From a virus (taxonomy: Duplodnaviria; Caudoviricetes), in IMG/VR virus record IMGVR_UViG_3300049730_000057, positions 1 through 45,580 of that record: 45,580 nucleotides of DNA. One strand, given 5' to 3'. Below are positions 2,277 to 24,906 of the stretch, piece by piece (the stretch's first letter is position 1; each line of letters opens with the position of its first letter). The translations under genes and the position numbers were made by a program. The notes beneath the pieces were generated by a model. It was not told the origin of the DNA. It did no database searches and saw nothing but the letters and a program-made list of their open reading frames with translations.

Positions 2277-2306
2277 TCCAGCCTCCCGTCTCATGACACA
2301 GATTCC

Positions 2307-2366
2307 CGTATATTCAGTTTGGGGACGTACAGGTATCTGGACTGTTCGAGCCGTCGATTTATTCAC
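2307..2366 (-). promoter_or_regulatory. 60-bp element, copy A
   Basis: 43/60 ungapped identity to 28261-28320; adjacent CTCATGACACAG at 2290-2301. Confidence 0.7.
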
Positions 2367-2728
2367 CTGATTCGACCCCACCTCGAAAATAGTTCCATGA
2401 GCCCGCTAACTAGCTGATTTCCCTAGAGGGGGCCCCAGAGCCCGGTACGACTGATTCTAGCACCCTGGGCGAGGTGGAGGCGAGGGGGGCTATCTAGCTA
2501 TGGTTTCAGGAAAATGGGGGCTCCAAGGCTCTCCTAGGCTCACGAAGGGGCATTGTACGGGGGCGCTGGGGGGCGGGGAAAAGGCTCCATCTGTGTGTAT
2601 TTAGGTATGCCAGGCCATGCCCCAACCTACCCGGCCAGGGGGGCCCCACCACTCGGGATGGGGGCCAGCCAGGAGAGGGGCAGGGGATGGCTCATCGCTT
2701 GGGCATGCTCATGATATCAATCATTTGC

Positions 2729-2766
2729 GGGGTAGGGGTGGGGAGAGGGTGGGGAGGGGGTGAGGG
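2729..2766 (+). other. G-run tract able to form a G-quadruplex, in the large non-coding region
   Basis: GGGG-ta-GGGG-t-GGGG-aga-GGG-t-GGGG-a-GGGGG-tga-GGG. Confidence 0.5.
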
Positions 2767-3012
2767 TGGCTGGTGGTCTGGAATAGGGGCAGAGCAGTGC
2801 GTCAATGTGTGTATGACAAAGTGTGTGACAAGTGTAAGTGGCTGAGAAGTAAGGGAAGACTGTGTGTTATAAAATCTTCAACAGTCAACCTGACAAAATG
2901 CCCGATTCATGATGCTACAACGCTAGCACGCTAACATGCTGACTTTGCAGCACTCGTGCTATCAAGCCCGCCATCCTGCCCGAGTGCCCCGCCCGCTGGG
3001 TAGCGGGCATTC

Positions 3013-3110
3013 TGTCATGAGCCCAAGTATCCCGCCCGTCGAAGTCCTTGATTCGATTGCTCGTATCCCCCTGGTACGAAAGCGGCACGCAAGGTGCATT
3101 GTCATGAGCC
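3013..3110 (+). promoter_or_regulatory. Two TGTCATGAGCC boxes (3013-3023, 3100-3110) upstream of the early operon
   Basis: Perfect copies of the genome-wide 11-mer, both followed by CA. Confidence 0.65.
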
Positions 3111-3138
3111 CAGATCGCAGCACACAGGAGACAGGCGA

Positions 3139-3351
3139 ATGGACACACCGATGACTCGCAAAGACGCACTCGAAAGCCTGATCGATCAGAGCACCCTTCC
3201 TGAGGTCCTCGCCGATCTTGCCCATGTCTGCGGGGAGAAGGCCGAGCACCTCCGCGCCAATTGGCAGGACGAAGTGACGGCTAGGCAATGGGAGAAGGCA
3301 GCTGACTGCATTGACAAGGCAGCTGCTCGAATCATGGGCCTGGGGCTGTGA
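3139..3351 (+). CDS. Early hypothetical protein
   Basis: AGGAG RBS; 70-aa helical ORF. Confidence 0.7.
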   Translation: MDTPMTRKDALESLIDQSTLPEVLADLAHVCGEKAEHLRANWQDEVTARQWEKAADCIDKAAARIMGLGL

Positions 3352-3463
3352 TTAGCTTCAAGTTTCGCATCTTCACAGCCAACGGCTACCTGTGGCTCGT
3401 CCTCCATCAACCCGTCTGCCGCGCTTGGGGGTTCAAGTGGGGGCAGACCGTGCGAGTAGTGGC

Positions 3464-3643
3464 ATGAGACCACATGGGGCCGGATGGAAGCTTCGATGGA
3501 CGGTACGCAAGTGGGAAGGCAACAAGCCACTACGCATCTACATCCGCACCATGCCGAACGGGTCATGGGAGCGCTTCGCAATCTGCGAGGACGAGTGGGA
3601 GCATACCGACTCCCGCCATACCAGGCTCGGAGGCAGCGACTAG
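3464..3643 (+). CDS. Early hypothetical protein
   Basis: ATG overlaps the stop of a 39-aa ORF at 3348-3467. Confidence 0.5.
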   Translation: MRPHGAGWKLRWTVRKWEGNKPLRIYIRTMPNGSWERFAICEDEWEHTDSRHTRLGGSD

Positions 3644-3700
3644 ATTGCAGACTCGGGGCGCATCTAGCCATACCGCGCCCCCACCGCTCTAGCAGCACCA
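3644..3700 (+). promoter_or_regulatory. Repeated hairpin motif, copy 1
   Basis: ATTGCAGACT, 7-bp stem, 13-nt loop, stem, ACCGC...GCAGCACCA; same geometry at 5034-5084. Confidence 0.55.
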
Positions 3701-3728
3701 AATCAGAGAGCGCACAGGAGAGACACAC

Positions 3729-4727
3729 ATGGCCCACGATCTGAGCATCCAGAACGGCAAGGTTGAGATGGCCTACAGCGGGGACACTCCCTGGCACTCA
3801 CTCGGCACCCGGGTAGACGGTCTCCAGACACCTCAGGACATGGTGAGGGTGGCTATCCCCTTCACTGTGGGACTGCGCGAGGTGTACCAGCAGGTAGATG
3901 GCCAGCCGAGCCTGATCCAGGGGCACCGGGCCATCGTCCGAGAGGATACCAATGTGGTTCTGGGCATGGCCAGTAAGAATTACAAGCCAGTCCAGAACCT
4001 CCAGGTTGCCGAGATCATGGACGCCATCGTCAGTGAGGGCAACGCCACGGTCGAAGTCTGTGGCGCCCTTGGCAATGGCGGAGAGTGCTGGATGCTCTCC
4101 CGTATCCCTGACACCTTCGAGGTCACCCGGGGCGATCAGATCAACAACTATGTCCTGCTGGCATGGGGCCATGACGGCAAGCATGGGATCGCGGGCAAGG
4201 TCACTCCCACCCGAGTGGTCTGCCGCAACACCCTGAGGGCAGCTGGCTTCGGCAAGGGCAAGTGGAGCACGAGTGCCGATCTGTACCTCAAGCATTACGG
4301 GGACATGAGAGTCAGGATCGCTGAGGCACGGGATGCTCTTGGCTTGATCCACAAGCAGGTGGAGACCACGCAAGAGGCCTACAAGGCTCTCGCCGCTCAC
4401 CAGGTGACCACCGAAGAGGTCCGCGCCTACTTCAAGACTCTCTTCCCCGAGCCCGTCAAGCCTGAGACCCCTACCAGTGCCTACAAGGAGCAGGTGAACC
4501 ATTGGCTTGACCGCTACTCAGAGCTTATCAGCGCCTATGAGAGTGCTCCCGGGGCCACTCCAGGGACAGCGTGGGGCGCCTACAACGCCGTGACCTACTA
4601 CACCGATCATCGCTACCCGATCCTGAGCAATGGCCAGTGGTCGCAGTCTCGGGTGCAAACGGTTGCAGCTGGCAGCATGGCCACGGTCAAAGACAAGGCA
4701 CTCACGGAAGCTCTGGCCCTGCTGTAA
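3729..4727 (+). CDS. DUF932-family (phage/plasmid-like TIGR03299-type) protein
   Basis: PWHSLG, YKPVQN, GALGNG, TPTRVVCRNTL, GTAWGAYNAVTYYTDH motifs. Confidence 0.85.
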   Translation: MAHDLSIQNGKVEMAYSGDTPWHSLGTRVDGLQTPQDMVRVAIPFTVGLREVYQQVDGQPSLIQGHRAIVREDTNVVLGMASKNYKPVQNLQVAEIMDAIVSEGNATVEVCGALGNGGECWMLSRIPDTFEVTRGDQINNYVLLAWGHDGKHGIAGKVTPTRVVCRNTLRAAGFGKGKWSTSADLYLKHYGDMRVRIAEARDALGLIHKQVETTQEAYKALAAHQVTTEEVRAYFKTLFPEPVKPETPTSAYKEQVNHWLDRYSELISAYESAPGATPGTAWGAYNAVTYYTDHRYPILSNGQWSQSRVQTVAAGSMATVKDKALTEALALL

Positions 4728-4730
4728 GCA

Positions 4731-4795
4731 AGGCGAAACCTAGGGGCCAGCAATGGCCCCGATGGTCTCCAGGTATCACCTGGACTGATGAGCCT
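4731..4795 (+). ncRNA. Type II hammerhead ribozyme
   Basis: AGGC-GAAA-stem III-GUC (4765-4767)-stem I TCCAGGT/ACCTGGA-CTGATGA-GCCT; complete catalytic core. Confidence 0.9.
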
Positions 4796-4833
4796 GAGAG
4801 GGGCCATACGCATCGTAGCCTGAGGAGGCACAC

Positions 4834-5028
4834 ATGCAGATTCAATGTGAGAAGTGTGGGTGTATCGGGATCAATTTTCCTCGGAAGTGGGCGCATGAGG
4901 AAGCTAAACAGCACCGAGCCAAGCATAGGGCCCTAGGCGTGAACGGGCACCATGGCGATGTCCGGGTGAAGGTCGAGAAGGATGGAGACATAGGGGCGCT
5001 TGCGATGTTCACGCTACCCCGACGCTAG
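4834..5028 (+). CDS. Small Zn-finger-like protein
   Basis: CxxC...HxxxH; GAGGAGG RBS. Confidence 0.65.
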   Translation: MQIQCEKCGCIGINFPRKWAHEEAKQHRAKHRALGVNGHHGDVRVKVEKDGDIGALAMFTLPRR

Positions 5029-5033
5029 CCCAT

Positions 5034-5084
5034 ATTGCAGACTTGGCCCCCATCTGCCGCACCGGGGGGCCGACCGCAGCACCA
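5034..5084 (+). promoter_or_regulatory. Repeated hairpin motif, copy 2
   Basis: Stem GGCCCCC/GGGGGCC with 3 compensatory changes relative to copy 1. Confidence 0.55.
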
Positions 5085-5104
5085 TCAATGCAGAGGGGGA
5101 GAGC

Positions 5105-5443
5105 ATGAGCACCTATCCGACGCCGGGACCATGGTTCGTGAGGGAGAGTACGTGCAAGCGGCACTCGCCCGGAGACCCAGAGTGCAGGATCGGGCCAGAT
5201 GTCATGGTCCGCACGGGGGAGGATTTGCCCGTGGCACAGTGTTACGGGTCGCCCCACCGGAGCCTGAATCAGGCGAAGGATAACGCTCGCCTGATCGCCG
5301 CGGCGCCGGAGATGTTGGCATTCCTGAAGCTTGTGGCCGACTACCAGCACGCCGCATGGTCGGATGACGCTGAAGAGCAGCGGTCAGCCTTTGCCATGAG
5401 TGCATGGGAGATCATCGCCAAGATCGAAGGGAGGGAGGCATGA
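5105..5443 (+). CDS. TPGPW...NARLIAAAPE-type phage protein, paralog 1
   Basis: Motifs common in small phage early proteins; paralog at 6109-6471. Confidence 0.75.
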   Translation: MSTYPTPGPWFVRESTCKRHSPGDPECRIGPDVMVRTGEDLPVAQCYGSPHRSLNQAKDNARLIAAAPEMLAFLKLVADYQHAAWSDDAEEQRSAFAMSAWEIIAKIEGREA

Positions 5444-5676
5444 GCACCCTGCGACCAAAGCACAGGGCTAGAACCTATGGAGACTTGCCCAGAACCCCCT
5501 CACATGGGGTGCTCCTAGGGTGCTTGATCGAAGGGCATGACGAGTATTCAGCCTCTAGGGGTGACTACTTTCTTATTCCAGATGAGGCGAAGCTGCCTGA
5601 GTGCTCAGTCTGTGGGGCGAGATGCCAGCTGATGAGGAAGAGGGTTGTCAGATCAGTAGTGGGGGTGGAGCCATGA
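5440..5676 (+). CDS. Small Zn-binding hypothetical protein
   Basis: ATGA overlap, GGAGG RBS, CxxC. Confidence 0.6.
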   Translation: MSTLRPKHRARTYGDLPRTPSHGVLLGCLIEGHDEYSASRGDYFLIPDEAKLPECSVCGARCQLMRKRVVRSVVGVEP

Positions 5677-5909
5677 CCACCACCACCACCACCACCTACC
5701 ACGACATGACCGACGTAGCGAAGTGGGATTGCCCGGTCCTGGTTGAGTCTCAGCTGTACCAGGAGAAGCTTGCCCGCTGGCCCCTGCCCTTGCAGGGGCT
5801 CAAGCTCGATAGCTGGCTGTATGCGGCAGCCAACAAGAGAGAGCATCATGACAAGGTGTCGTGTTGGAGTGTGGATGAGACGTTGGTGTTTGAGGGGTGG
5901 CCCAACTGA
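5673..5909 (+). CDS. Hypothetical protein with poly-Thr N-terminus, paralog 1
   Basis: (ACC)7 after the ATG; KLARWP.PLQGLKLDSWLYA shared with 6468-6740. Confidence 0.75.
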   Translation: MTTTTTTTYHDMTDVAKWDCPVLVESQLYQEKLARWPLPLQGLKLDSWLYAAANKREHHDKVSCWSVDETLVFEGWPN

Positions 5910-5962
5910 TGGCCCCCTGGAGCCGACCGCAGGTGAGCAGTCAAATTGCAGAGGAGGAGACC

Positions 5963-6112
5963 ATGAGTAACCCTGAGACAATCCCAAATGAGCAGTGCTC
6001 CTGCATCGTCGGGCCCGAATGGTCGGGTTCGCCCGTCAACAATGACACCGCATGGGAGTGCGACGAGTGCGGCCGGATCATCCCGTGCGACGAAGAAGGG
6101 GCCAAGGCATGA
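5963..6112 (+). CDS. Small Cys-rich protein
   Basis: GAGGAGG RBS; CxC...CxxC. Confidence 0.55.
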   Translation: MSNPETIPNEQCSCIVGPEWSGSPVNNDTAWECDECGRIIPCDEEGAKA

Positions 6113-6471
6113 GCACCCACACGCCGGGACCGTGGAAGGCTGAAGTCGTTAGCAGGAGCATGGATCAAGGGCGCCGTGCCCAGATTCAGATTCACGGCAG
6201 CATCACGCCCATATCTGCCGTTGTGGTGGCGGACCTACCCACTACGCTAGCGTGGCCACCACCTGAACCGGGCCACCATGCAACGTGGGATGGTCTCCTG
6301 GCTAACGCTCACCTGATCGCCGCGGCGCCTGAGATGCTGTCAGCATTAAGGGTGCTCCTGACCAGGTACGACGAGCTAACCACGGGCCGGACAAAGGCAC
6401 ACATCCAGTTTCAAAGGGAGATTGAGCCAGTACGCGCCCTCATCGCCAAGATCGAAGGGGCTATCCAGTGA
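6109..6471 (+). CDS. TPGPW...NAHLIAAAPE-type phage protein, paralog 2
   Basis: Homologous ends with 5105-5443 (IAKIEG). Confidence 0.75.
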   Translation: MSTHTPGPWKAEVVSRSMDQGRRAQIQIHGSITPISAVVVADLPTTLAWPPPEPGHHATWDGLLANAHLIAAAPEMLSALRVLLTRYDELTTGRTKAHIQFQREIEPVRALIAKIEGAIQ

Positions 6472-6740
6472 CCACCACCACCACCACCATTGACCACTGG
6501 CCCCAGGACAAGCAGGGCTACTACCATAACCTGACCCGGATAGCTGACTGGGGCTGCCCAGTCTTCGTAGAGACAAAGCTGTATCACGCGAAGCTCGCCC
6601 GCTGGCCCGAGCCCTTGCAGGGGCTCAAGCTTGACAGCTGGTTGTATGCCCTAGCGAACCGGAGGGAGCACAGTGACAAGGTGACAGGGGGGAAGTTTGA
6701 CAACATGCTGGTGTTTGAGGCTGGAGGGAGCCATGAGTGA
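6468..6740 (+). CDS. Hypothetical protein with poly-Thr N-terminus, paralog 2
   Basis: (ACC)6 after the GTG; homolog of 5673-5909. Confidence 0.75.
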   Translation: MTTTTTTIDHWPQDKQGYYHNLTRIADWGCPVFVETKLYHAKLARWPEPLQGLKLDSWLYALANRREHSDKVTGGKFDNMLVFEAGGSHE

Positions 6741-6894
6741 GTTTATCGTCACGCTCACAATGAAATATCGAGTCCGAGCACCTGATAAGAAGGCGGCTAG
6801 TCAAAAGGTACATGACCGAATATGCGCCCCAGAGGATGATCCTCCAGGCGATCTGGAGTATTGGAAGGTCACTAGTAAAGAGGTTGGAGCCTAA
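6733..6894 (+). CDS. Small hypothetical protein
   Basis: GGAGGGAG RBS; 53 aa. Confidence 0.6.
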   Translation: MSEFIVTLTMKYRVRAPDKKAASQKVHDRICAPEDDPPGDLEYWKVTSKEVGA

Positions 6895-6905
6895 AGGAGA
6901 ACAAC

Positions 6906-7085
6906 ATGCCAAGATTCATTGTTAAGGCAACGGTGAGACTGTCAGTCATCGCGGATAACGTCGACGCAGCAGAAGAGCGAGCGTGGTCTATCCTACAGGC
7001 TTTGGAGCGGAAAGATCATGGCTTGGATGTGAGCGTCATAGCTTCCCTTAAGGATGAGACTCGGCTAGCGGAGGGGGGCGCCTAG
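6906..7085 (+). CDS. Small hypothetical protein (not in the ORF track)
   Basis: AAGGAG RBS; MPRFIVKATVRLSVIADN..., 59 aa. Confidence 0.6.
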   Translation: MPRFIVKATVRLSVIADNVDAAEERAWSILQALERKDHGLDVSVIASLKDETRLAEGGA

Positions 7086-7097
7086 CCCCCTTCTTCA
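7071..7097. terminator. GC-rich hairpin at the convergence of the early and integrase units
   Basis: GAGGGGGGC-GCCTA-GCCCCCTTC followed by TTC. Confidence 0.5.
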
Positions 7098-7255
7098 CAA
7101 CTATCTAGCCCCTCGACAGCCTCTTCTCTTGTAGCCCACACCCCCGCCAGACAGTTATCCTCATTCTCCCGAACCATCGCTAGCTCTGCCTCATCCTCAA
7201 TTCTGGCAAAGGTCCAGCTGGCAACAGTAGGAGTACCAGTGCCCGATCCGGGCCT

Positions 7256-7483
7256 CTATCGGCAGCAGGGGCGCATCTGCGGCCTCTGTGGCAGCACCAC
7301 CGGGGTATTCACCGGAGGCTGCTGCGGAATCATGACCGGTGGGTAGGTCACCACCTGCCCATAGTTACTCTGTAGCAACCCCTGGCTGAGCCCCTGACCT
7401 GCCCCCACCCAGTTCACCTCTCCCGAGGCACAACCTGCCCCCAGGATGCTCACAGATGCTGCTAGAGCCATCTCTTTAAGCAT
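7256..7483 (-). CDS. Putative lipoprotein (candidate superinfection-exclusion factor)
   Basis: Hydrophobic leader plus lipobox LGAG-C; co-oriented downstream of the integrase; function is inference. Confidence 0.5.
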   Translation of the reverse strand: MLKEMALAASVSILGAGCASGEVNWVGAGQGLSQGLLQSNYGQVVTYPPVMIPQQPPVNTPVVLPQRPQMRPCCR

Positions 7484-7486
7484 GTG

Positions 7487-7552
7487 TCACCCCTCCACCA
7501 GAGACAGTACCACGACCCACAGAACCACCAGCGTCAAGAGCACCCAGATCAT
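7487..7552 (-). CDS. 21-aa transmembrane peptide
   Basis: MIWVLLTLVVLWVVVLSLVEG with GGGGAGG RBS. Confidence 0.4.
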   Translation of the reverse strand: MIWVLLTLVVLWVVVLSLVEG

Positions 7553-7622
7553 GCCCCACCCTCCCCCTGTAACATGTTGACTTGCTTACCTGTACGATGC
7601 TCGAACCCCACCTTACGATGCA

Positions 7623-8759
7623 TCAGAGGTCACCCACCAAGTCATCGTTATCATGAGCCTCTGGCCCTTGGGCGCGGTCGCCTCGTCGGGATAGGCCACC
7701 GACTGAAAGGTCAATCATGGCGCCCATCTTCCCCATGGCCCCCTGCACCTGCCCCCTGTAGATCGGGATGTACCGCTGTGTCGTGGTGACCTTCGAGTGC
7801 CCCATGCAGGCCATGATGGTGATGAGGTCTTCCCCTTGGTCTGCCAGGAGGCGGGCGAAGGTGACCCGGAGGTCGTGTAGGCGAAGGTTGGGCATGCCGA
7901 TAGCCCTGGTCGCCTGCACCCACCATCGGCGGGTGTGGTCCTTAGATCGGTTCCTGAACACGTACCCATCAGGACGGGGGCCAAGGCTACGAAGAATCCC
8001 TATCACTTGATCCGACAGAGGGATGGAGCGGTCCAGCCGCTTACTCCTGTAGGTCAACATCCGACCCGAGAGATCAACTTGTTGCCACGTCATGTCTACA
8101 ATGACCCCCCTACGTTGCCCCGTAAGGGCCAGCAGGGCCACCTTGGCCCTCTCTTCGGGGTCAGGGGCTAGATCAAGTACCTGGGCTATCTGGGGGGCTG
8201 TGAGGCTCTGGTAGGCCCTCCAGGGCTCTGGATAGAGCTTCACCCGGCGAGGGGATGCTGGATTGTCAGCAGCCAGGCGATGGTTGATGGCCCAAGTGAA
8301 GAAGGCTGACAGGTGAGCGAGGTCACGGTTGACCGTAGCCCCCTTAATCGGTTTCCCCCGGTGCTCTGTCATGAGCCTGGCCCTGGCCCATGCCTCCACG
8401 TCGTCAACCTGGATGTCGGCTATCTTCTTGCCAGGCCATGAGGCAGCGAAGCGATTGAGGGACCGCTCGACATGAGCCTCATCGGTCAGGCGGCCCCGGA
8501 CGTGGGTCAGCAAATATTTCTTTGAGAGGGTGGTGAATAAAGTAGGGCTCTCACTCGTCCGTATACTTGTACGTCCCAAGGTTGAATCATGGAGTCGTGG
8601 TCTGCTGGGCATACCACCACTGTCATGAGGTCCAAGCTCCAAAATCCTCTGAGCCTCCATGATCTGGCATGCCTCTTGCGTGGCAGCATGCCCCTCATAG
8701 CTCTTCCCCGCCCGCTTGAACCTGTACCGCCATCCCCCCCGATGATACTTGCTCACCAT
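7623..8759 (-). CDS. int: Tyrosine integrase/recombinase
   Basis: Catalytic R (TGQRRG), HDLR, MGH, terminal RY; N-terminal W-Y-F arm-binding-like domain; likely start M at 8759. Confidence 0.93.
   Translation of the reverse strand: MVSKYHRGGWRYRFKRAGKSYEGHAATQEACQIMEAQRILELGPHDSGGMPSRPRLHDSTLGRTSIRTSESPTLFTTLSKKYLLTHVRGRLTDEAHVERSLNRFAASWPGKKIADIQVDDVEAWARARLMTEHRGKPIKGATVNRDLAHLSAFFTWAINHRLAADNPASPRRVKLYPEPWRAYQSLTAPQIAQVLDLAPDPEERAKVALLALTGQRRGVIVDMTWQQVDLSGRMLTYRSKRLDRSIPLSDQVIGILRSLGPRPDGYVFRNRSKDHTRRWWVQATRAIGMPNLRLHDLRVTFARLLADQGEDLITIMACMGHSKVTTTQRYIPIYRGQVQGAMGKMGAMIDLSVGGLSRRGDRAQGPEAHDNDDLVGDL
8533..8592 (+). promoter_or_regulatory. 60-bp element, copy C (inside int, inverted relative to A and B)
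   Basis: 52/60 identity to the reverse complement of 28261-28320, with a 39-bp perfect core; TGTCATGAG at 8621. Confidence 0.75.
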
Positions 8760-8760
8760 G

Positions 8761-9186
8761 TCATGAGCCCTCCTCACTCGTAGGATGCTCCGACCCTTCT
8801 GACAGTTCCCTCCAATCCTTCTCCCTCCACGGTTCAAGGAGGTCCAGCAAGCTGATGACCGTGGCCCACTCCCTCCCATGGCCAAGGGTACGATTCCACA
8901 GCTTCCTGATCTGCTGACACGCCTTCTCAGCCCCCTTCGACTCCCGCCAAGCCCTACTTGTCCACTCTTCCCCTCGGTCTCGGACCATGGCGGTGGTGGT
9001 CCCTTCTATCCAGCCCCGCAGAATCTCTGGCCACGGGTCCGGTATAGGGTGCGTTCTCCCCCACCCTGAAACCGTTTGCAAGCTCTTTCCGACAGCCTTA
9101 GCTAAGTTCTTTGCTGACCCATACTTAGCGACCAAGGCTTGCTTTAGCTCTACATGGTCCTCTGGCACCCCGGCGACCTTGGGCAT
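8761..9186 (-). CDS. HTH transcriptional regulator, probable immunity repressor
   Basis: YGSAKNLAKAVGKSLQTVSGW HTH; upstream of int and divergent from the replication operon. Confidence 0.75.
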   Translation of the reverse strand: MPKVAGVPEDHVELKQALVAKYGSAKNLAKAVGKSLQTVSGWGRTHPIPDPWPEILRGWIEGTTTAMVRDRGEEWTSRAWRESKGAEKACQQIRKLWNRTLGHGREWATVISLLDLLEPWREKDWRELSEGSEHPTSEEGS

Positions 9187-9319
9187 TGTCTTCCTCCCAC
9201 CCCCTCAAGGCATCACTCGTGCCACCCCCCTGTCGAAACCAACACGTATCAAGTGCATCTGAATATTTGATCCATGTGGTACGGTCTAACCGTTCGAACC
9301 AAACGGGGAGGGGTCGAGC

Positions 9320-9748
9320 ATGGTCCCAGAGGTCAGCCTGCCGGAGCTGCTGGGGTTCTGTCGGCGGATGCACGAGAAGCGGGTGGCTCTGATCGAGAAG
9401 AAGGGCCACGACTACAACCGCCAGCAACAGGAAGGCGGGAACACCCTCTTCAACCTGACGGTGGCCGAGCTGCTGGGCATCGTCCCCACCGCTGAGCGAG
9501 GCATCCTGGTGCGCCTGAGTGACAAGTTCATGCGGCTCATCAGCCTCATGGCCCCTGGGGTTCTGGCTGCCAATGCTGAATCCCTGGAGGACACCGTAGC
9601 TGACATCCACAACTATGTGGACTATGCCCTCTGCCTCTACCAGAAGCGGTGCTCTGGCGAGCTAAAGCCTGGCGAGTGCGTCCACGGCGTGGGGCTCTGC
9701 ACAGGGTCATGTAGTAAGAAGAGAGCACCGCGCGAGCTAGAGCGATAG
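9320..9748 (+). CDS. DUF1599 / nucleotide-modification-associated (MazG-like) domain protein
   Basis: KKGHDY...GILVRLSDKFMRL...ESLEDTVADIHNY. Confidence 0.7.
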   Translation: MVPEVSLPELLGFCRRMHEKRVALIEKKGHDYNRQQQEGGNTLFNLTVAELLGIVPTAERGILVRLSDKFMRLISLMAPGVLAANAESLEDTVADIHNYVDYALCLYQKRCSGELKPGECVHGVGLCTGSCSKKRAPRELER

Positions 9749-12799: not shown

Positions 12800-13015
12800 A
12801 TGTTTAAAACTGCTGTGAGGAAGTCTTTCATGATTCTGGGTCGTGAGGGGCGAGTGATCGTTGAGGAAACACCACACGGCCGTGAGGTCGCCATTTGCCT
12901 GATAAGCGGTGAAGAGGAGGGTCGGGGCGGCGAGAGCCTGCAACGAGTATGGCTGAGCAAGGAGGCCTGGGAGGACTTGTGCGATCTCCGGTACTCTGTG
13001 AGCTGTGGGGAATGA
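12800..13015 (+). CDS. Small hypothetical protein, probable paralog of 14325-14531
   Basis: SKEAWEDLCDLRYS vs SREDFEALCNLRYT. Confidence 0.65.
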   Translation: MFKTAVRKSFMILGREGRVIVEETPHGREVAICLISGEEEGRGGESLQRVWLSKEAWEDLCDLRYSVSCGE

Positions 13016-14328
13016 CCCTCGTTAGAGACATCCCCGCCTGCCGTGGTTGCCCTCATTACCAAGACGGCAGCCAGCCCTTCGTCCCTGACGAGCCCCCAGG
13101 TGCCCCCATCGTCATCATGATGCAGAATCCTGGAGCCACTGAAGAGCGTGAGGGGAAGCCAGCGGTCGGGGACACAGGGAGGGTGTTGAACAGCGTCTAC
13201 CTCCCCAAGGCAGGCCTCCACCGTGACGGGGTGCAGGTGTGCAATGCTCTCCGGTGCAGGGTTGCTGGGAGGAATGAGCTTCCTCCCTTGAATCTTCTCT
13301 CTACGCGAGCGGCCCTGGCTCACTGCAACACGACCCACTTCTCCCCTAATCCAGATGCCAAGCTCTACGTGGCCATGGGTGCCTATGCCCTGTACTTTCT
13401 GACGGGTGAGGGTATTGGGCCTCGTCATACCATCAGCTCGTGGCGAGGGTGGCTGCTACCGTGGGGAGTCCCCTATGAGCCGTTGACTCGCCTCTATCAT
13501 CCAGAGCCCGGTAAGCCCAGCGTCTTCGCCACCATGCATCTGGCAGCCCTGGTCCATGACCCTGGTCTCAAGATTGCTCTGTCGGCTGACTGGCAGCGCA
13601 TCGGGCGCTATCTGCGGGGCACCTGGCCCGAGAGGTTGCCTGTCTATCATGTCGGGCCTCCTGTACATCTCCCGACCATCTGTACGTTTGACACCGAATA
13701 CGATATCGACACAGGGGAGCTGTACCGCTACTCGATGCACGATGGCGAGCAGACCTGGGTGGTGGAGGCCTCAGAGACCGGTCCCTTGCCCTATCAAGAG
13801 GGGTCCACGGTCATCCTCCAGAATGCAGATGCTGACCTGGACACCCTGTCCACCGTTGTCCCCCTACAGGCTGTCAGAACCGAAGACACCATGCTGGCTG
13901 ACTCGGTTCTGTGGAGCGGGTTGCCCCATGATCTCGAATATCTCGGAAGTCTGTATGCTCGACTTAACCGATGGAAACATCTCTATCAGGCCAGCCCTCT
14001 TGACTACTCGGCGGCTGATGCAGTCGCTACCTGGGATGTCTGGCAGGCTTTATCACGTCAGTTTGCAGCTGACCCAGGGAGCTGGCGGGTCTACGATTCA
14101 TATGTCCGCCCACTCACTCCCATCATCCGGCGAGCTGTCCAGCGCGGCACCAGACTTAATCAAGAGCGAGTCAGAGCCGCTCTCACCGAACTCATTGGAT
14201 ACCGAGACCGAGCAAGTCAAATAGGCCAGGCGGCTGTGGGCTGGCCAATCAATCTAGGGTCACCGCAGCAGGTGTCCAAAGAGCTGTTTGAGACGAGGCG
14301 CATCAGGGTGCCAAGGAGGAATGCATGA
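13012..14328 (+). CDS. polA: Family A DNA polymerase, N-terminal part (UDG family-4-like domain, 3'-5' exonuclease, start of thumb)
   Basis: CxxC, QNPG..E...G.P.VG.TG, NALRCR; Exo motifs FDTE, QNADAD, DTML, YSAAD; INLGSPQQV..ELF. Confidence 0.85.
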   Translation: MTLVRDIPACRGCPHYQDGSQPFVPDEPPGAPIVIMMQNPGATEEREGKPAVGDTGRVLNSVYLPKAGLHRDGVQVCNALRCRVAGRNELPPLNLLSTRAALAHCNTTHFSPNPDAKLYVAMGAYALYFLTGEGIGPRHTISSWRGWLLPWGVPYEPLTRLYHPEPGKPSVFATMHLAALVHDPGLKIALSADWQRIGRYLRGTWPERLPVYHVGPPVHLPTICTFDTEYDIDTGELYRYSMHDGEQTWVVEASETGPLPYQEGSTVILQNADADLDTLSTVVPLQAVRTEDTMLADSVLWSGLPHDLEYLGSLYARLNRWKHLYQASPLDYSAADAVATWDVWQALSRQFAADPGSWRVYDSYVRPLTPIIRRAVQRGTRLNQERVRAALTELIGYRDRASQIGQAAVGWPINLGSPQQVSKELFETRRIRVPRRNA

Positions 14329-14531
14329 TGATGAGGACAGAATACTCCTCCACAAGCAGTGAGGGGTATAAGCTGAGTGTCTGGTTCACTGAGGATGGTG
14401 AGTGTGCTGTGTTCAGCATCAGTGGGGGTGGGTGTGGGAGTGCAGATATCGATGTGTCTCGTGAAGACTTCGAGGCACTGTGCAACTTGAGGTACACGCT
14501 ACCTCCTCAAGAGCCCCCACCTGCAGAGTGA
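14325..14531 (+). CDS. Small acidic protein lying between the two polymerase halves
   Basis: Start overlaps the polA-N stop, stop overlaps the polA-C GTG; AAGGAGG RBS. Confidence 0.65.
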   Translation: MMMRTEYSSTSSEGYKLSVWFTEDGECAVFSISGGGCGSADIDVSREDFEALCNLRYTLPPQEPPPAE

Positions 14532-15589
14532 GAAGCGTAGATGCCGACACCATGCGTCGCATCCTCTCGGTCTCCCAAGACCCCTTGGCCGAGGCCAGAC
14601 TCAAGTTCTCGGAAGTGGAATCGTTTCGGAAGTACCTTAGCCCCCTTGTTGGTAAAGAGCGGTGTCACAGCTCTATGCTTCCTACCCAAGCCTCGGGGCG
14701 CTGGTCGACCACCAACCCGCCCAAGGTGAACTTTCCAGATGACAAGAAGGCGGAAGAGTATGACCTACCGGAACTCCAAAGTGTGTTCATGCCCGACCCT
14801 GGATATTGGTGGCTGGGCTGGGACCATGATGCGATTGAGGCTCGGCTGGGGACGGCATACTGTGGGGATAAGCTTGATCTGGAGTCGTTCGCTAATGGGT
14901 GGGACATTCACACTCTCACTGCGTGTGATCTATTTACCTTGCCCCTGCCGCCTTCCAAGCTGGAACAAGACATTCATAGTAAGTCCCCCACTCCCACTAT
15001 GGCTGCTTGGCAAGCACAGGTGAAGTGGGGCGGCAAGGGAGACCGCAGGCGTCACCTGGCCAAGACAGCCCGGTATGCCCTCACGTATGGCGAGGATGAG
15101 AAGGCCTGCACCACGGCTAAAGGGGTCGAGAAGCTGGGGCTCAGTAAGCAAGAGCTGCTGGATGCTGGTCGACGGTTCCTCAGGGCCAAGGCCAAGACCC
15201 TTGTCATCTGGAAGAAGATCACCTGGGCCGAGTGCATCCGTACCAAGATGGCCCGCACATTCCTCGGGAGAAGGCGGATGCTCTTTGGTCCTGACCATCA
15301 TGTGAAGAAAGAGGGTTTGAACCACATGATCCAGGGCGCGGTGGCTGACGTGATGAATGCCAACCTCATCAGTCTGCTGGGCCCTGGGGGCATGTTGGAG
15401 CAGTGGGGGACCTTGGAGCTGAATGCCCATGACGGGGCCCGCATCGCTCTCCCTGTTTCCATTGATCTCGGAATCCTCCCCTATGTGCGAGCCATCGTAG
15501 AAAGGGAATGGGATGTTCAAGGGAATCGGATGCGCTTTCCCGCAACCTTCTACTGGATCGATGACCAGGGGGTGAAGGCAGGGCTATGA
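14528..15589 (+). CDS. polA: Family A DNA polymerase, C-terminal polymerase part
   Basis: SGRWSTTNP, motif A DHDAIEAR, DIH, motif B RHLAKTARYALTYG, TFLGRRR, N..IQG..AD, motif C AHD. Confidence 0.9.
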   Translation: MRSVDADTMRRILSVSQDPLAEARLKFSEVESFRKYLSPLVGKERCHSSMLPTQASGRWSTTNPPKVNFPDDKKAEEYDLPELQSVFMPDPGYWWLGWDHDAIEARLGTAYCGDKLDLESFANGWDIHTLTACDLFTLPLPPSKLEQDIHSKSPTPTMAAWQAQVKWGGKGDRRRHLAKTARYALTYGEDEKACTTAKGVEKLGLSKQELLDAGRRFLRAKAKTLVIWKKITWAECIRTKMARTFLGRRRMLFGPDHHVKKEGLNHMIQGAVADVMNANLISLLGPGGMLEQWGTLELNAHDGARIALPVSIDLGILPYVRAIVEREWDVQGNRMRFPATFYWIDDQGVKAGL

Positions 15590-15903: not shown

Positions 15904-16149
15904 ATGGGTCGCACCAGCAAGACCGTCAAGTTTATCTTCCACAGCTCCCTGCGTCACAGCTCTGAGGTGGAGGAGTTGGAGGCCAAGGGGCACACTGTGT
16001 GCCAGATGACCGATGAGCAGGAGCAGCACATGTTTCTGGGCCCCAACTGTTGGCGCATGACCCTCAGTCAGATCGCCTACCTGGACCTGGCACTCAAGGA
16101 AGCTCGCAAGAGCATGTACCCCAAAGAGGCTCATGACAATGATGCCTAG
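15904..16149 (+). CDS. Hypothetical protein
   Basis: 81-aa ORF abutting the upstream stop. Confidence 0.65.
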   Translation: MGRTSKTVKFIFHSSLRHSSEVEELEAKGHTVCQMTDEQEQHMFLGPNCWRMTLSQIAYLDLALKEARKSMYPKEAHDNDA

Positions 16150-16262
16150 ACTTCGCGCGCTGGTCGACCTGACTCTTGTTGCCTGTGCCTTGACCGTCAC
16201 CATCGTCGTGGTGGCCAAGGTCGTGAGTGATCCTGCTCCCATCACCATTGTGTGTCCCAGTC

Positions 16263-16484
16263 ATGAATGAGATTCACTTCAACGTCATCACCAAAGACGG
16301 CTCCACCTACACCCTCTCAGCCATCGATATCCTGACAGCCTACGTCACCAACATCATGCGCTTGTCCATGGACCCGGAGTCAGCCCAGATGCCCCTCCGG
16401 GAGTCTGCTATACGCGCAGAGGAAGCCCTGCACTGGCTCAATATCGCGACCAAGGTCTTGAATATGCCTGATGCCCCTGCCTAG
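16263..16484 (+). CDS. Hypothetical protein with weak Acb2/Tad1-like helical motif
   Basis: RESAIRAEEALHWLN. Confidence 0.45.
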   Translation: MNEIHFNVITKDGSTYTLSAIDILTAYVTNIMRLSMDPESAQMPLRESAIRAEEALHWLNIATKVLNMPDAPA

Positions 16485-16495
16485 GAGAGCCTGTC

Positions 16496-16822
16496 ATGAC
16501 GCATCAAGAGCGAATTGAGAAGTATGGAGAGTCGAGTCTGTATGCCCCCCGCCGAGCCGACAACAGGGTGAAGTGGACCCTGGAGACGGTGGCTCGGTTT
16601 GTTGATCGCTGGGATCACGGGATGCCGGTCATCGAGCTGGCTAGGGTCTTTGACCTGAAGAACCCCCGCTCAGTCCGCAACATCGTGCGCTGGTTGCGGG
16701 GGAAAGGCATTGAGCTGGCCCAGCGGGAGCCTGGCCCTGACATAGGGTGGGAGACAGGGGGTTATGCGGAGTCTTCGGTCTACAAGCGTAACGGGAAGTA
16801 TATCCGCCAGTGGAGGCCATGA
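16496..16822 (+). CDS. HTH-like DNA-binding protein
   Basis: KWT.E...GMPVIELARVF....RSVRNIVRWLR..GI.L; AGGAG RBS. Confidence 0.6.
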   Translation: MTHQERIEKYGESSLYAPRRADNRVKWTLETVARFVDRWDHGMPVIELARVFDLKNPRSVRNIVRWLRGKGIELAQREPGPDIGWETGGYAESSVYKRNGKYIRQWRP

Positions 16823-17073
16823 CATGCATCTGTGGGGGGCTGCTGTACAGCGTCAACATTGTCTTCAACTCAGGCTTCGGGGATCAGGTCCCCAGTTCCC
16901 CATGGTGTTCTCGGGAGTGTCTCGATGAGAAGGAAGAAGGCTACTGGCGGCACTGGGGTGCCATCAACCGAGCCCTCTGTGATTATGTCCACCGGCAGAA
17001 GGTCCCCGATGTCGTGGCCGGTGTCGCTCAGCATGTGCCCATGTTGTGGTATGGCGAAGACCCAAGTGATTAG
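16819..17073 (+). CDS. Zn-binding hypothetical protein
   Basis: CxC...WCSxxC. Confidence 0.55.
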   Translation: MTCICGGLLYSVNIVFNSGFGDQVPSSPWCSRECLDEKEEGYWRHWGAINRALCDYVHRQKVPDVVAGVAQHVPMLWYGEDPSD

Positions 17074-17485
17074 GACGACAGGGGCGGTGGAGCCTGTGTG
17101 CGTCTGCTGTGACCTGGACTCTGTGACCAGGCCTGACTGCCCCCATAAGGAGGGCCACAGTGCCAGCGAAAGACGGCAACCTCAAATATCAGAAGTCATA
17201 CGAGAAGAGCGAGAAGGGCAAGGCCACGCGCCACAGGTACTACCTCAACAAGATACAGAGACAGCGTGACGGCATTCAGCCCTCAGCTGGTGCTGGGGAT
17301 GCCGGTGGCACGGCACCTCTATGTCGGGAGGGGTGAGCAGTGGATAGGCTCATGACAATCCATCCAGTCACCACACGGATCGGGAAGTGTGCCCGAAAGG
17401 GCCACAGGCCCCCTAACAGGTTCAAGGTATGCACGCGGTGCGGGAAAGAGGTCAGCCTGCTGGAGTGGCTGACTAGGAGGGCGCT

Positions 17486-17746
17486 GTGAGCAAGCCCCGC
17501 TTCTTCAAGTCATTCCATGGACAGGCTGTGAGCAGGCTTGAGTTGGGGCCTGCTGCACCGCCCCCTTTCCACAGGGGCTCAGTGAAGTGTGCGGTGGAGG
17601 GGTGCCGAGAGATGGTGTTTGTCACATGGGGCAGGAATCGGGCATGGAAGCGATGCATTCTGCATTCCCCTAATGGCCCAGCAATCCAGTCTGCCATTGC
17701 CAAACGTAAAGAGTACATTGCTGAGGTCATCAGGAGAACCTCATGA
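17486..17746 (+). CDS. Hypothetical protein
   Basis: AGGAGG RBS; C-x4-C...CxxH. Confidence 0.55.
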   Translation: MSKPRFFKSFHGQAVSRLELGPAAPPPFHRGSVKCAVEGCREMVFVTWGRNRAWKRCILHSPNGPAIQSAIAKRKEYIAEVIRRTS

Positions 17747-17955
17747 AAGCCACCCTCGAATTCACCCTGCCTGAAGAAGAAGATCTGCACCAACGAGCCA
17801 TTGACAGTCAGGACATGGCCACGACCCTGATGGACCTGTATCAGGCTCTGCGGACTCAGCTGAAGTACGGTGACCTGACCCCTGAGACACACAAGGCCCT
17901 GGATGCCATCTACAAGGACCTGAGCGAGAGTCTCTCGTGGTTGAGGCTTCTTTGA
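17743..17955 (+). CDS. Conserved-type phage hypothetical protein
   Basis: MKATLEFTLPEE...LRTQLKYG. Confidence 0.7.
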   Translation: MKATLEFTLPEEEDLHQRAIDSQDMATTLMDLYQALRTQLKYGDLTPETHKALDAIYKDLSESLSWLRLL

Positions 17956-18669
17956 ATGCTGTGGGCAATAGCCTCTGACTTCCAGTGCCCTTTCTGGGAC
18001 ATGTGGGCGGTGGACTTGTTCCTGGAGACCTGTTCAGCCCGCAAGGTTGATGGGGTCATCCTCGATGGTGACATCTTGGACTGCCCCCAGTTCTCAGACT
18101 TCGACAGGGACCCTCGCCGAGCCACCCGCTTCACCCATGACATTGAGCGGGTGTGCAATGAGCTGTTGAAGCCCTTGCACGGGGTCAAGAGGCTGATCTG
18201 GATCGATGGCAACCATGAAGACAGGCTGCTCAAGTACCTCGTGAGGAAGGCCCCTGAGCTGCTGGAGACCCACCCCACCATCCCTGACATGCTGGGTCTG
18301 GATGACATTGGCTGGGACTATCTGCCCTACAAGGACTACTACAAGCTGGGCCACCTGATCGTGACTCATGGCCAGACGTACCGCTCAGGTGTCCTGGCCT
18401 CTGTACGGGCAGAGATGCAGCGGTACGGGGGCTCAGTCTTGATGGGCCACACCCACAGGCTCGGGATGTTCTACCACACCGACCTGAGGGGCCCCCATGT
18501 GGGCTGTGAGAATGGACACATGAGTGACGTGAATCAGTTGACCTGGATCAAGCATCCTGATTGGCAGCAGGGCTTCTCTCTGGTCAAGGTCGAATCGAAT
18601 GGTCTCTTCCACATTCAGCAGCTTCCCCTGTTGGGGGAGCGCAGAAGCAAGCGGGTGGTGATGCTATGA
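17956..18669 (+). CDS. Calcineurin-like metallophosphoesterase
   Basis: SDFQ, GDILD, GNHE, HG, GHTH. Confidence 0.88.
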   Translation: MLWAIASDFQCPFWDMWAVDLFLETCSARKVDGVILDGDILDCPQFSDFDRDPRRATRFTHDIERVCNELLKPLHGVKRLIWIDGNHEDRLLKYLVRKAPELLETHPTIPDMLGLDDIGWDYLPYKDYYKLGHLIVTHGQTYRSGVLASVRAEMQRYGGSVLMGHTHRLGMFYHTDLRGPHVGCENGHMSDVNQLTWIKHPDWQQGFSLVKVESNGLFHIQQLPLLGERRSKRVVML

Positions 18670-19058
18670 ATCCTGGGTTGGTCAAGCGTCTCCGAGAACT
18701 GTGTGCTGAGCACGACAAGATGGAGCGAGAGATTCTGGTGCTGTGCCGCAAGTTCACCGATGCCGAGCTGGTGGAACTGGGGATGGCGTGTGCTCCCACC
18801 GTTGATGAGGCTGCTGATGCGCTGGTGGGGGGCATGCATAGTCAGGCCTGCGCTATACGCGCCCTCTACGCCCCGCTGGTGGAGGGGGTGGCGTATTGGG
18901 GAGAGGTGGCGGCCCGGGCGGTGAACGCCAATCACGCGCTGAACGCGGCGCACGCCCGCCTGCTCGCGGACTTCCGTTGGCTAGCGGCGGAACTCCGACT
19001 GACGTACTTCACGACCGCAGAGTGGCGCGAGCACATCGCCCCGCACCTCGAACCCTGA
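18666..19058 (+). CDS. Hypothetical protein
   Basis: ATGA overlap; 130 aa. Confidence 0.55.
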   Translation: MNPGLVKRLRELCAEHDKMEREILVLCRKFTDAELVELGMACAPTVDEAADALVGGMHSQACAIRALYAPLVEGVAYWGEVAARAVNANHALNAAHARLLADFRWLAAELRLTYFTTAEWREHIAPHLEP

Positions 19059-19125
19059 AGTAACGCACGGGGTCTGGCTGCAACCAGACCCCGTGGCCCT
19101 GAACCCACAACCCCTAAGGAGGCAG

Positions 19126-20523
19126 ATGATGTGGGCAGCTAAGCTTAGCACTTCTCTACTCTTTACCCTGCTCCTGGTCTCTCCAGCAGCCGCCGAGTGG
19201 GTCTTTATCCTCCCGCACATCCAGGACGTGTGTGAGGCAGACTTCGACGGCGACGGGCGGAAGGATAGCTTGTTGCTGAACAACGTGGACGGACTCAAGA
19301 CCATTCTCTTGAGCCGGGATGATGGTGGTGCCCCCTACTATCACAACGTCCAGTTTCAGGATCTCAACTGGCGCATCGTGGCCTGTGCTGACTTTACCGG
19401 TGATGGGGTGCCGGACACGTTGGAGCGGCATGCGTCTGGGGATGTGGCGATACGGCCCTATTATCAGGGGTGCTGGTGCTTCGGTGACCTGGTCTTCTGG
19501 CACGCGAACCCTGGTGATGGCTGGCGCATCCAGTCCGCAGCCGACAAGGATGGGAACGGCATCGCAGACATCATCTGGCGGGGGCCCAACTGGGAGCGAG
19601 GCATCTGGTACATGAGCGGGAGTTACGGGTATCCCTTCATCATGGCCCCCATATACATCCACAAGGGTGCCCACGCCCCTCAGGCGACGTGGCACGACGC
19701 CGCGCAGTTCACCGTGGTCTCAGCCCCCCTCGGAGGGGGCTCCATGGTGGTGCGGGGGCCGCAGTCTGACATTGTGATTGTGCGAGCCAACGGGGACGGT
19801 GGGGACTACTTCGAGGTTGCGGCAGCCCCGCCCCCAACTCCCACCGTGAGCCCTGGGGAGGCTGCCACCAACTTTGCTGACAGTGCCGTCCGCTCCCTGC
19901 ACGAGCTGGCCGGGGAAGCTGAGTCCCTCCGACAGATGACCACGGTGTGGAGCATGCTCTGGCATCGCTACGACACCCGAGCGAGCAAGGTCCGGGCTGG
20001 GAAGGTCAGCCTTATCTCCATCAATAGCTGGGTCCAGGGTATTCGGCTTCTCAAGCTTCAGCATCCTGGGAATGCTGCCGTGCATGCCCAACTCATCAGG
20101 GCTGAGGAAGCCCAGGCACTGGGTCGAGAGATCTTCGCAGGCATGGAGACGATGCTGGGGGGCCGCTCGGTCCCACCTATCCCCATCCCCCCGCTCCCTG
20201 TTACCTCGCCTCCGGTCCCCGTCCCACCCCCGCTCCAGGGCAACAGCATCGCTCAGCACCGAGCTGATGAGGCTGGGGTGACTACCTCACTGGACCCGAT
20301 GGTGGGGACGACCACGGTGAACGGCACCGTGCAACTCACCCAGCCCCTCCAGAACCCCAATCTTTCAGCGCCCCCCTTCACCCTCCCCAGCACCACCTAC
20401 AACCCCGTGTCGCTGGTGTCCATACCCCCACAATTCATGCCCAGTCAACTCGTACCTGTTGACCCGACCTACCCGCCACCACCCTACATCATTGACCTGT
20501 TTGCGCGTCCACCAGGCTTCTGA
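19126..20523 (+). CDS. Secreted FG-GAP/VCBS-repeat protein with Pro-rich tail
   Basis: Signal peptide; ADFDGDGRKD, ADFTGDGVPD, ADKDGNGIADIIWR repeats; TAAGGAGG RBS. Confidence 0.8.
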   Translation: MMWAAKLSTSLLFTLLLVSPAAAEWVFILPHIQDVCEADFDGDGRKDSLLLNNVDGLKTILLSRDDGGAPYYHNVQFQDLNWRIVACADFTGDGVPDTLERHASGDVAIRPYYQGCWCFGDLVFWHANPGDGWRIQSAADKDGNGIADIIWRGPNWERGIWYMSGSYGYPFIMAPIYIHKGAHAPQATWHDAAQFTVVSAPLGGGSMVVRGPQSDIVIVRANGDGGDYFEVAAAPPPTPTVSPGEAATNFADSAVRSLHELAGEAESLRQMTTVWSMLWHRYDTRASKVRAGKVSLISINSWVQGIRLLKLQHPGNAAVHAQLIRAEEAQALGREIFAGMETMLGGRSVPPIPIPPLPVTSPPVPVPPPLQGNSIAQHRADEAGVTTSLDPMVGTTTVNGTVQLTQPLQNPNLSAPPFTLPSTTYNPVSLVSIPPQFMPSQLVPVDPTYPPPPYIIDLFARPPGF

Positions 20524-21011
20524 GCACAGGGTGAGGGGAGGGTCAGCGCGTTGGGCTCTCAACAGTTCCATGGTGGCGTCCAGTCGATGCATCAGCTCTT
20601 GGTGACTGAGGGGAAGGGGCCTTGGATGCTCATCCATCACACTCAGACCCGTGTTGAGTATCTGGATGCAGAGGGCAATGGCGGGGAGGGTGGTCATGGT
20701 CAAGCAGGGTAGCACCTACCGCACCATGCTGCACGGCACCTGTCTGGTGGGGGGTCGGCACCCTGAGGGCTCTGATCTCTGGTTGGAGTGTCCCGTGGTG
20801 AAGGCAGCTGAGAGGGGGAGGAAAAGGGCTCTAGGTGTCCCCCTGAGGGCTCCTAGGATGCCTCAAAATAAGCCTAGGAGACCCCAGGAGCAGGTAAATA
20901 AGCCCACTGAGGGCTAGAGTACTCCCCAGGATGACCAGGGTCTCTGGCCAACAGTAGACCCTATCATCCTGCCCCACTCCAGGGCTCATGACATTGAGCC
21001 AGCACCACGTT

Positions 21012-21308
21012 CTACTGAACCACGTCAAAGCTTACCGAGCGGAAGACTGAGTCCCCCACCGCATCCGTAATCCTGATCTTGCTGGTCCATGAGCCCACCT
21101 GACTGCTTGCAGGAAGCTCATGGTTCAGGGTCCAGACCCCGATGGCGGCATTGGTCATGGCCTGGTCGGTCAGCTCTTCGGTACCGTCAGGCCTGAAGAC
21201 TGTCAGCCGCACATTGGAGGGGTTAGCCAGGATGTTATTCAAGGATGCGTCTCTCGTCTCCACCCTGAAGAAGAGCACATGGGGGGCGATGACTCTGAAG
21301 AGTGCCAT
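21012..21308 (-). CDS. Ig-like tail-associated protein
   Basis: V.LTV.RPDG...G.W......GSW pattern; follows the tail fibre gene. Confidence 0.6.
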   Translation of the reverse strand: MALFRVIAPHVLFFRVETRDASLNNILANPSNVRLTVFRPDGTEELTDQAMTNAAIGVWTLNHELPASSQVGSWTSKIRITDAVGDSVFRSVSFDVVQ

Positions 21309-24674: not shown

Positions 24675-24717
24675 ACGTTACTCTGAGGGGATCACCCCCT
24701 GAGTTGATACCTCCGCG

Positions 24718-24903
24718 TTAGCCAAGCCTGAGCCCGATCTTCCCTGGCTCAGCGTTCAGGTGGAAGTGGCGGCAGCCACACCGGAGGCAGATGGATACCG
24801 AGTCGGCAATCCTCTCCGGTGCGCGCTGCCAGGGGCTGCGGTTGGCGGGGTTGGCGCAACAGGCCTTCATGAGGCCGATGTGGATGGGCTTCAGGGGCAC
24901 CAT
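24718..24903 (-). CDS. Small Cys-rich protein
   Basis: CC...CxxCGCRHF. Confidence 0.6.
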   Translation of the reverse strand: MVPLKPIHIGLMKACCANPANRSPWQRAPERIADSVSICLRCGCRHFHLNAEPGKIGLRLG

Positions 24904-24906
24904 GAG

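Follow-up and report, generated by a model that had tools for sequence, protein, structure and literature searches.

A three-copy element of a soil phage genome, with one copy antisense in the integrase linker, as a candidate promoter cassette

The phage genome and its integrase locus

The stretch of DNA considered here (the window; 45,580 nucleotides, the full length of IMG/VR virus record IMGVR_UViG_3300049730_000057) was recognized by Pfam and PHROG annotation as a whole or nearly whole tailed-phage genome. Leftward genes encode terminase, portal and major capsid proteins and include a tyrosine integrase and a helix-turn-helix (HTH) gene at 7623-9186; early and replication genes run rightward. 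Because the first and last 783 bases (1-783 and 44798-45580) are 88% identical and a strain contig spans this junction, the genome is circular. The two ends are two strain alleles of one circular junction, and the ORF at 44920-45489 corresponds, in variant form, to the 3' part of that at 123-1175. All 24 listed runs holding positions 7600-9600 are soil metagenomes. A scan of GTDB with the integrase of a sister phage (described below) returned three loci, weak and uninformative as to host or prophage, and one GenBank record proved to be a distant relative only. Neither tRNA nor tmRNA was found in the window, and no S24 peptidase domain (PF00717) in the genome. The sigma domains PF04542, PF08281 and PF04545 found no match in the phage, and any sigma factor invoked below would therefore be the host's.

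Several repeated or divided features occur elsewhere in the genome. A family A polymerase occupies two ORFs (12949-15589), the first with a uracil-DNA-glycosylase domain, and is split likewise in two relatives (G001 and G006). Tandem paralogous gene pairs, 74-82% identical, lie at 5696-5895/6521-6720, 12096-12163/12362-12429 and 12473-12574/12687-12788. Repeats of 66 nt are found in a fibre-like gene of 1121 aa, and of 54 and 162 nt in a virion gene of 1379 aa (window positions 22118-24029 and 33390-34672). Directly 3' of a DUF932 gene is a hammerhead-like core (GAAAC ... GTC ... CTGATGAG; 4732-4797, +) of which two stems fold, Rfam Hammerhead_3 scoring only 20.3 bits (E 9.2) at this position.

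The integrase gene (7623-8759, - strand; 378 aa) was assigned by Pfam (PF00589, E 8e-16), PHROG 1, alignment and an AlphaFold model, in which an N-terminal domain of three strands plus a helix is followed by a linker and by core-binding and catalytic domains. Linker residues 45-69 are of low confidence in the model (pLDDT below 50). The suspicion that this linker represents an insertion was borne out: 31 residues separate ELG from the first core-domain Phe, versus 11 and 12 in the relatives G001 and G002, and the linker exceeds that of the six closest full-length homologues in alignment. Codons 57-75 of int show near-lowest codon adaptation for the gene (one of 360 windows is lower) and contain TTA, a codon used once among the 689 Leu codons of 14 further genes; this stretch is interpreted as a DNA-level feature. 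The TTA codon is nearly absent genome-wide, yet occurs once in each lysogeny gene, at int codon 74 and repressor codon 28. The C-terminus of the integrase (7623-7710) forms a low-confidence tail of about 30 residues ending in GDL, similar in the sister integrase and lacking in most relatives; a foreign 30-nt match within it, at 7669-7698, is at about chance level. The adjoining HTH repressor-like gene (8761-9186, -; 141 aa) matches phrog_409 (E 5.5e-4) and, under the cut-off, NF046037 (E 1.1e-5).

A three-copy element and a dispersed box

An earlier reading of the sequence had described three gap-free copies of a 60-bp element, and recomputation agreed: A at 2307-2366 (+), B at 28261-28320 (+) and C, the reverse complement of 8533-8592, share 43/60 (A/B), 52/60 (B/C) and 36/60 (A/C) positions. 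The 39-bp perfect B/C core reported with them is likewise present, 8549-8587 corresponding to 28266-28304. No further gap-free 60-mer in the window exceeds 30/60, and a PWM built from the three copies scores them at 71-85 and the next site at 1.9, leaving no fourth full copy. The conserved unit comprises 55 bp, from ATTCA to TTTATTCAC. Read in the lytic direction, every copy presents GTGAATAAA, a 15-nt spacer of constant length and variable sequence, then GTCC and a further conserved block, with about 20 conserved bases after the predicted transcription start. Downstream, GTCC recurs at 16 nt and TGAAT at 49 nt. Ten of the 17 A/B mismatches fall inside the spacer, as do all four B/C differences when the spacer is defined from A/B (P = 0.004). 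Clustering of mismatches in blocks was also indicated by a runs test (P 0.014 for A/B, 0.002 for A/C), and a 9-bp end block is invariant beyond the diverged spacer.

Each copy is oriented into a lytic block: A into head and packaging genes, B into tail genes and C into replication genes. Copy A (2312-2366, -) stands at the head of the leftward late operon, with a predicted -35 block at 2358-2366, a predicted -10 GTCC at 2339-2342 and a conserved block at 2322-2331 that would hold the +1 at 2330-2331, as suggested by mapped starts in the promoter table of PMC6180224; the first gene after it (2112-2294, -; 60 aa) has no NCBIfam match and was called on 36 contigs. Copy B (28266-28320, -; predicted -10 at 28293-28296 and +1 at 28284-28285) fills a 76-bp gap between gene 28317-28691, whose stop lies within the -35 block, and the tail/adaptor block, which begins with a virion structural gene (26705-28240, -; 511 aa; phrog_3287, E 2.6e-5). 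A and B thus lie directly upstream of leftward genes, as originally noted. Copy C (8533-8587, +; predicted -35 at 8533-8541, -10 at 8557-8560 and +1 at 8568-8569) lies within int codons ~58-75 and faces right, antisense to the 5' end of int and to the repressor-like gene and sense to the replication block. A separate string, AGGTGGGGT(T)CGA, occurs on the - strand at 7600-7613, just past the int stop, and at 2370-2383, 17 nt upstream of A.

Two other explanations of the element as a unit were discarded. An intron or excision event at the ATTCA direct repeat would remove 49 nt, out of frame, and short-peptide coding is contradicted by frames that differ between copies and are closed by stops.

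All three copies are accompanied on the same side by a short box, CTCATGACA, as had been claimed; the implied specificity did not stand, however, as the box has 10 copies in the genome (0.7-1.0 expected). Seven exact copies of the 11-mer TGTCATGAGCC were found versus about 0.1 expected. The box follows the element at 13 nt (A), 21 nt (B) and 33 nt (C), a placement with a chance of about 0.003 per copy, the copies being dependent if box and element were copied together. In its nine-base form, TGTCATGAG, it lies at 2290-2298 (-), 8621-8629 (+) and 28236-28244 (-), and at A and B it includes the ATG of the next gene (2112-2294 and 26705-28240, respectively). Seven more boxes occur without the cassette, at 3013, 3100, 8367 and 8759 on the + strand and at 16130, 17349 and 20985 on the - strand, and eight of the ten nine-mers read in the lytic sense. 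The + boxes (3013-8759) all fall in one arc of the genome and the - boxes (16130-28244, and 2290) in the other (~0.04 by chance), the arcs diverging near 2300-3000.

Promoter-like geometry and the sigma factor it suggests

From these comparisons we tentatively propose, with a little less than even confidence, that the element is a promoter cassette in three copies, predicted to be read by an alternative, ECF-type sigma factor of the host. The original prediction had offered, as its second inference, protein-controlled promoters with C producing antisense RNA. The polarity, the spacer pattern and published promoter geometry fit that inference; transcription and control by a protein stand as predictions.

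In a test of the -35 region, GAATAA is matched at 6/6 positions in A, B and C, and the ECF26 form GGAATA at 5/6; for the -10 region, GTC follows GAAT at N18 in all copies, matching GGTCT at 3/5. By eye, GAAT-N18-GTC is present in four of the six RpoE1/RpoE4-dependent rows not marked as RpoD- or RpoH-type in Table 1 of PMC6180224. Mapped starts lie 11-12 nt past the -10 G in the two rows of that paper with a lower-case start, a distance that here falls on the first base of the conserved TGTACGTCCC block. Thirteen consensus pairs printed in Table 4 of PMC13492112 were compared in both orientations with four spacers. The best of them was ECF207, in the lytic orientation, with a score reached by 13 of 300 column shuffles (P = 0.043, for a consensus picked post hoc), and among ~91,000 strand positions it ranks A 2, B 4 and C 4. 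Rank 1 in the genome falls to a further site, D (9260-9288, +; TGAATAT ... GGTCT), which played no part in picking the consensus and lies inside the 101-nt stretch ahead of gene 9320, the first of the rightward lytic genes, 60 nt upstream of it. High scores are not enriched, since 7 real positions reach at least 11.3 versus 10.3 in shuffles, and 29% of 200 shuffles produce a score of at least 14.65; the argument accordingly rests on position and not on score. Site D is only weakly like A downstream (3.7% of 1,402 windows are as similar) and shows no resemblance to B or C (26%), and no box occurs near it or between the repressor-like gene and 9320. Imperfect palindromes at 9274-9297, over its -10, are candidate repressor operators.

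GAATAA-N16-GT[CT] occurs three times in the window, at A, B and C. The printed ECF26 pair ranks A/B/C at only 265/109/109, and the FliA consensus ranks C 1, B 16 and A 124; the copies carry TGAAT and GTCC, in place of the GGAAT and GTCT seen in the majority of mapped ECF26 promoters. The sigma assignment, drawn from printed consensus pairs, could be altered by full ECF position matrices; RNA runs entered the analysis as contigs only. None of the three copies had a terminator called. A host can use its resident ECF26 sigmas to fire ECF26 promoters of foreign origin (PMC10880074), which makes the ECF-sigma idea testable.

In the mechanism we propose, GTGAATAAA would act as the -35 and GTCC as the -10 region, transcription would begin at the TGTACGTCCC block and the box would be an operator gating the promoter. 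The ~20 conserved bases after +1, left over by the promoter model, may bind a phage protein. RNA polymerase starting from copy C would run against the ~190 nt at the 5' end of int and against the entire repressor-like gene and so favour lysis, with the disordered integrase linker accommodating the additional ~20 codons. Recent copying or gene conversion would explain the 39 bp identical in B and C, and a B x C crossover through ordinary homologous recombination would split int. Because hybrid cassettes would stay before the tail and replication genes, such an inversion would be at most a by-product, a side effect and no designed switch. A more ambitious construction, in which a stress-responsive host ECF sigma is wired into the lysis decision through four promoters (head, tail, replication and antisense in the int linker), with SOS-independent induction of a repressor that has no autocleavage domain and occasional inversion to an integrase-null, lytic-competent isomer, is speculative and on balance unlikely. 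If the ECF reading is true, it would identify a specific way in which prophages in soil are induced independently of SOS; if it fails, the element would be an ordinary lineage-specific duplication. In the open-licence PMC and bioRxiv full text we found no paper in which a host ECF sigma reads the lytic promoters of a phage, or in which repeated late promoters lie antisense in int.

The same polarity and regulatory role would be retained if the blocks were bound instead by a phage protein, as a late activator or an antiterminator loading site, together with a housekeeping or FliA-like sigma. Such a protein would account for the ~35 conserved bases, which exceed what a sigma needs, and is compatible with the first rank of C under the FliA consensus; a candidate is an HTH gene (16496-16822; 108 aa; PF13518) that follows the replication genes. 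Q-dependent late promoters carry pause elements, and the downstream GTCC and TGAAT repeats recall them. Against this, sigma-70 sites reading in the lytic direction are missing from A, B and C, the HTH protein found no Atlas family match at or above 0.9 and none to GcrA or sigma region 4, and the element is absent from relatives that possess this late module. We regard a phage-protein site as unlikely.

Distribution of the element and its possible origins

Pattern scans of viral collections retrieved the element from this phage's own contigs only, the remainder being chance matches (3/3 own in one scan; 3 own and 5 unrelated by their flanks in another; 4 own and 1 unrelated, in a coding gene, in a third). 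All ten matches in JGI metagenomes were unrelated by flanks, the exact 22-base pattern was absent from 185,579 GTDB genomes, and blastn against INPHARED gave 0 matches. Conservation of the element in related phages was not seen: it is present in 0 of 5 related records, and a comparable dispersed repeat in 0 of the 3 relatives tested. By these sequence scans, which may lack records very close to the window, the element is restricted to this soil-phage population or lineage.

In relative G001 (capsid 61% and integrase 38% identical) the gene blocks are oriented as they are in the window. Its counterpart of the tail gene, 34% identical to the product of 26705-28240, is stop/start-coupled to the upstream gene with no gap, and that upstream gene differs from the one in the window; G001 has no cassette. 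Since G001 is gapless here and the linkers of G001 and G002 are short, the gap at B and the ~20 codons at C are taken as additions in this lineage. Within the population, a strain contig carries a G-to-A variant of B at 28278, in the central conserved block, and the variant makes up ~40% of depth in two of four runs. The sister phage (integrase P0057 and repressor P0059, each with a longest contig of 44,914 bp), examined here through two short contigs, has a near-identical repressor and integrase N-terminus and an integrase core that is 56% identical. A mosaic boundary of the sister phage lies near 8500, adjoining C. A 151-nt contig of depth 2.6 aligns to 8503-8567 with five differences; in the GGGACGTACA block the alignment breaks off, and TGAAT lies 6 nt beyond the break. 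The other loose end of the contig translates, by eye, as the N-terminus of the sister integrase P0057. The downstream block of C thus appears changed in the sister phage, although a single contig of low depth may be wrong.

These distributions bear on whether the copies are neutral or nearly so, an intergenic piece having been duplicated into a tolerant integrase linker and kept alike by recent recombination. Confinement to one phage population would suit that origin, as would the low-confidence linker and the variation of the central block, seen at B in a strain and, apparently, at C in the sister phage. It leaves unexplained, however, why mismatches cluster in blocks with the 9-bp end block invariant past a diverged spacer, and why all copies point in the lytic direction and are followed, at differing distances, by a box; we consider it quite unlikely.

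Control at the level of RNA is very unlikely. Under this reading, C within the int/repressor mRNA of the lysogen would serve as an antisense arm directed at the late leaders of B and A; alternatively, the element would form a small structured RNA. The copy in int mRNA is indeed the exact complement of 39 nt of late mRNA at B, and a sigma-70-like site on the + strand occurs at B only (28239-28268, 10/12). Yet sigma-70 sites are at chance level (4 found versus 4.1 expected), the shared 39 nt leave the ribosome-binding regions uncovered, Rfam over the copies gave chance-level scores only, folding z-scores run from -0.4 to +1.7, and covariation counts against the consensus fold, its term being unfavourable. 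Likenesses to twister, hammerhead, HDV-like, CRISPR-repeat, dif, DnaA-box, LexA-box and sigma-54 elements were dismissed after no consistent match and a negative Rfam search.

The first inference of the original prediction, that the integrase acts on A, B and C and that its gene is split, as a switch, when B and C recombine to invert the DNA between them or the phage integrates through C, we judge highly improbable. Its geometry was accurate: the B and C arms lie 19,652 nt apart, in agreement with the ~19.7 kb proposed, and the B x C fusion comes out as described, at 92 aa. The accompanying statement that inversion detaches the tail genes is only half right: a hybrid cassette would remain before them. 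Phage Mx8 has an att site inside int. Att sites inside integrase genes are also known from the suicidal integrases treated in PMC8371274. Copy C does lie between the N-terminal and core domains, four boxes that fall within int or at its edge (8367, 8621 and 8759, plus 7649 with one mismatch) could be arm sites, and the sister phage, whose integrase core is 56% identical, seems to carry another central block. Against these points, no dyad beyond shuffles, no host junction and no inverted record was found. The best inverted core-type arms round a 6-8-bp spacer match at 6/9, a value reached by 53-64% of shuffles. Only four phage flanks adjoin the core in all four runs, in which a rare prophage would escape, and the search for a host attB gave 0 GTDB genomes with the exact pattern; the window has no tRNA or tmRNA. 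Each of the three IMG/VR contigs that span B is arranged as in the window, k=31 contigs being blind to an inversion at a 39-bp repeat or in a minority; full-length 378-aa integrase was called on two Logan contigs, and the gene calls hold no protein of 33-105 aa that shares words with the integrase N-terminus. The 10 genome-wide copies of the CTCATGACA box, six exact boxes of which, together with the box at B, lie kilobases away from int, also argue against this reading, and the suicidal integrases are described in PMC8371274 as archaeal only. Depth differences beside C and absent cover at 8724-9626 in run X5 were considered and gave no evidence of inversion.

Repeated regulatory cassettes are already known in phages; here the layout is unusual in that a cassette has moved antisense into the integrase linker while also heading late operons. 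Convergent lytic and lysogenic promoters are familiar from coliphages 186 and P2, and antisense promoters from lambda. The predicted promoter at C is like these in being directed, in the lytic sense, against a lysogeny operon, and unlike them in lying inside int, with an overlap of ~620 nt and a sequence common to two late-gene cassettes. The predicted promoters resemble ECF26/ECF207-type promoters such as those of S. meliloti RpoE1/RpoE4 (in the rows of PMC6180224 cited above) in the 18 nt from GAAT to GTC, the variable spacer and a predicted start 11-12 nt after the -10 G, and share the GAATAA of the C. metallidurans RpoO consensus printed in PMC13492112; they differ in the TGAAT/GTCC motifs, in about 20 extra conserved bases after +1 and in belonging to a phage in which no sigma gene was found. 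The PeSL cassettes of T4-like phages (PMC4122927; PMC2839356) are likewise short, multi-copy regulatory cassettes and possible recombination points between unrelated loci. The present element has no terminator hairpin and only three copies, one of them inverted in coding sequence, in a temperate phage, and precedes core lytic blocks, whereas PeSL precede accessory genes. With the suicidal integrases of SSV1, pTN3 and pT26-2 (as presented in PMC8371274) it shares the position of a repeated DNA element near the 5' part of an integrase gene. Here, by contrast, the integrase is a bacterial one of lambda type, the partner copies lie within the phage, there is no tRNA-like core, and no split gene or host junction was seen.

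The dispersed box is an asymmetric short sequence in the manner of the Cluster K ESAS/SAS repeats and Cluster A stoperators of mycobacteriophages (PMC3203893, PMC4351075), and, like these, it stands in some cases at start codons and is linked to a longer upstream element. Unlike these, it has no 17-bp inverted repeats, only eight of ten copies face the lytic direction, and it is a candidate operator. G001 carries nine copies (at most one mismatch) of a dispersed 12-bp motif and G002 five copies of another, some of them in or near int and, in G001, also in the early control region. As both relatives have dispersed motifs of their own, the box is best read, by this analogy, as a lineage-specific, operator-type site used in stoperator/SAS manner. 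In the early control region of G001, a 21-bp inverted pair lies 296 nt apart (L044, 9133-9153 and 9450-9470).
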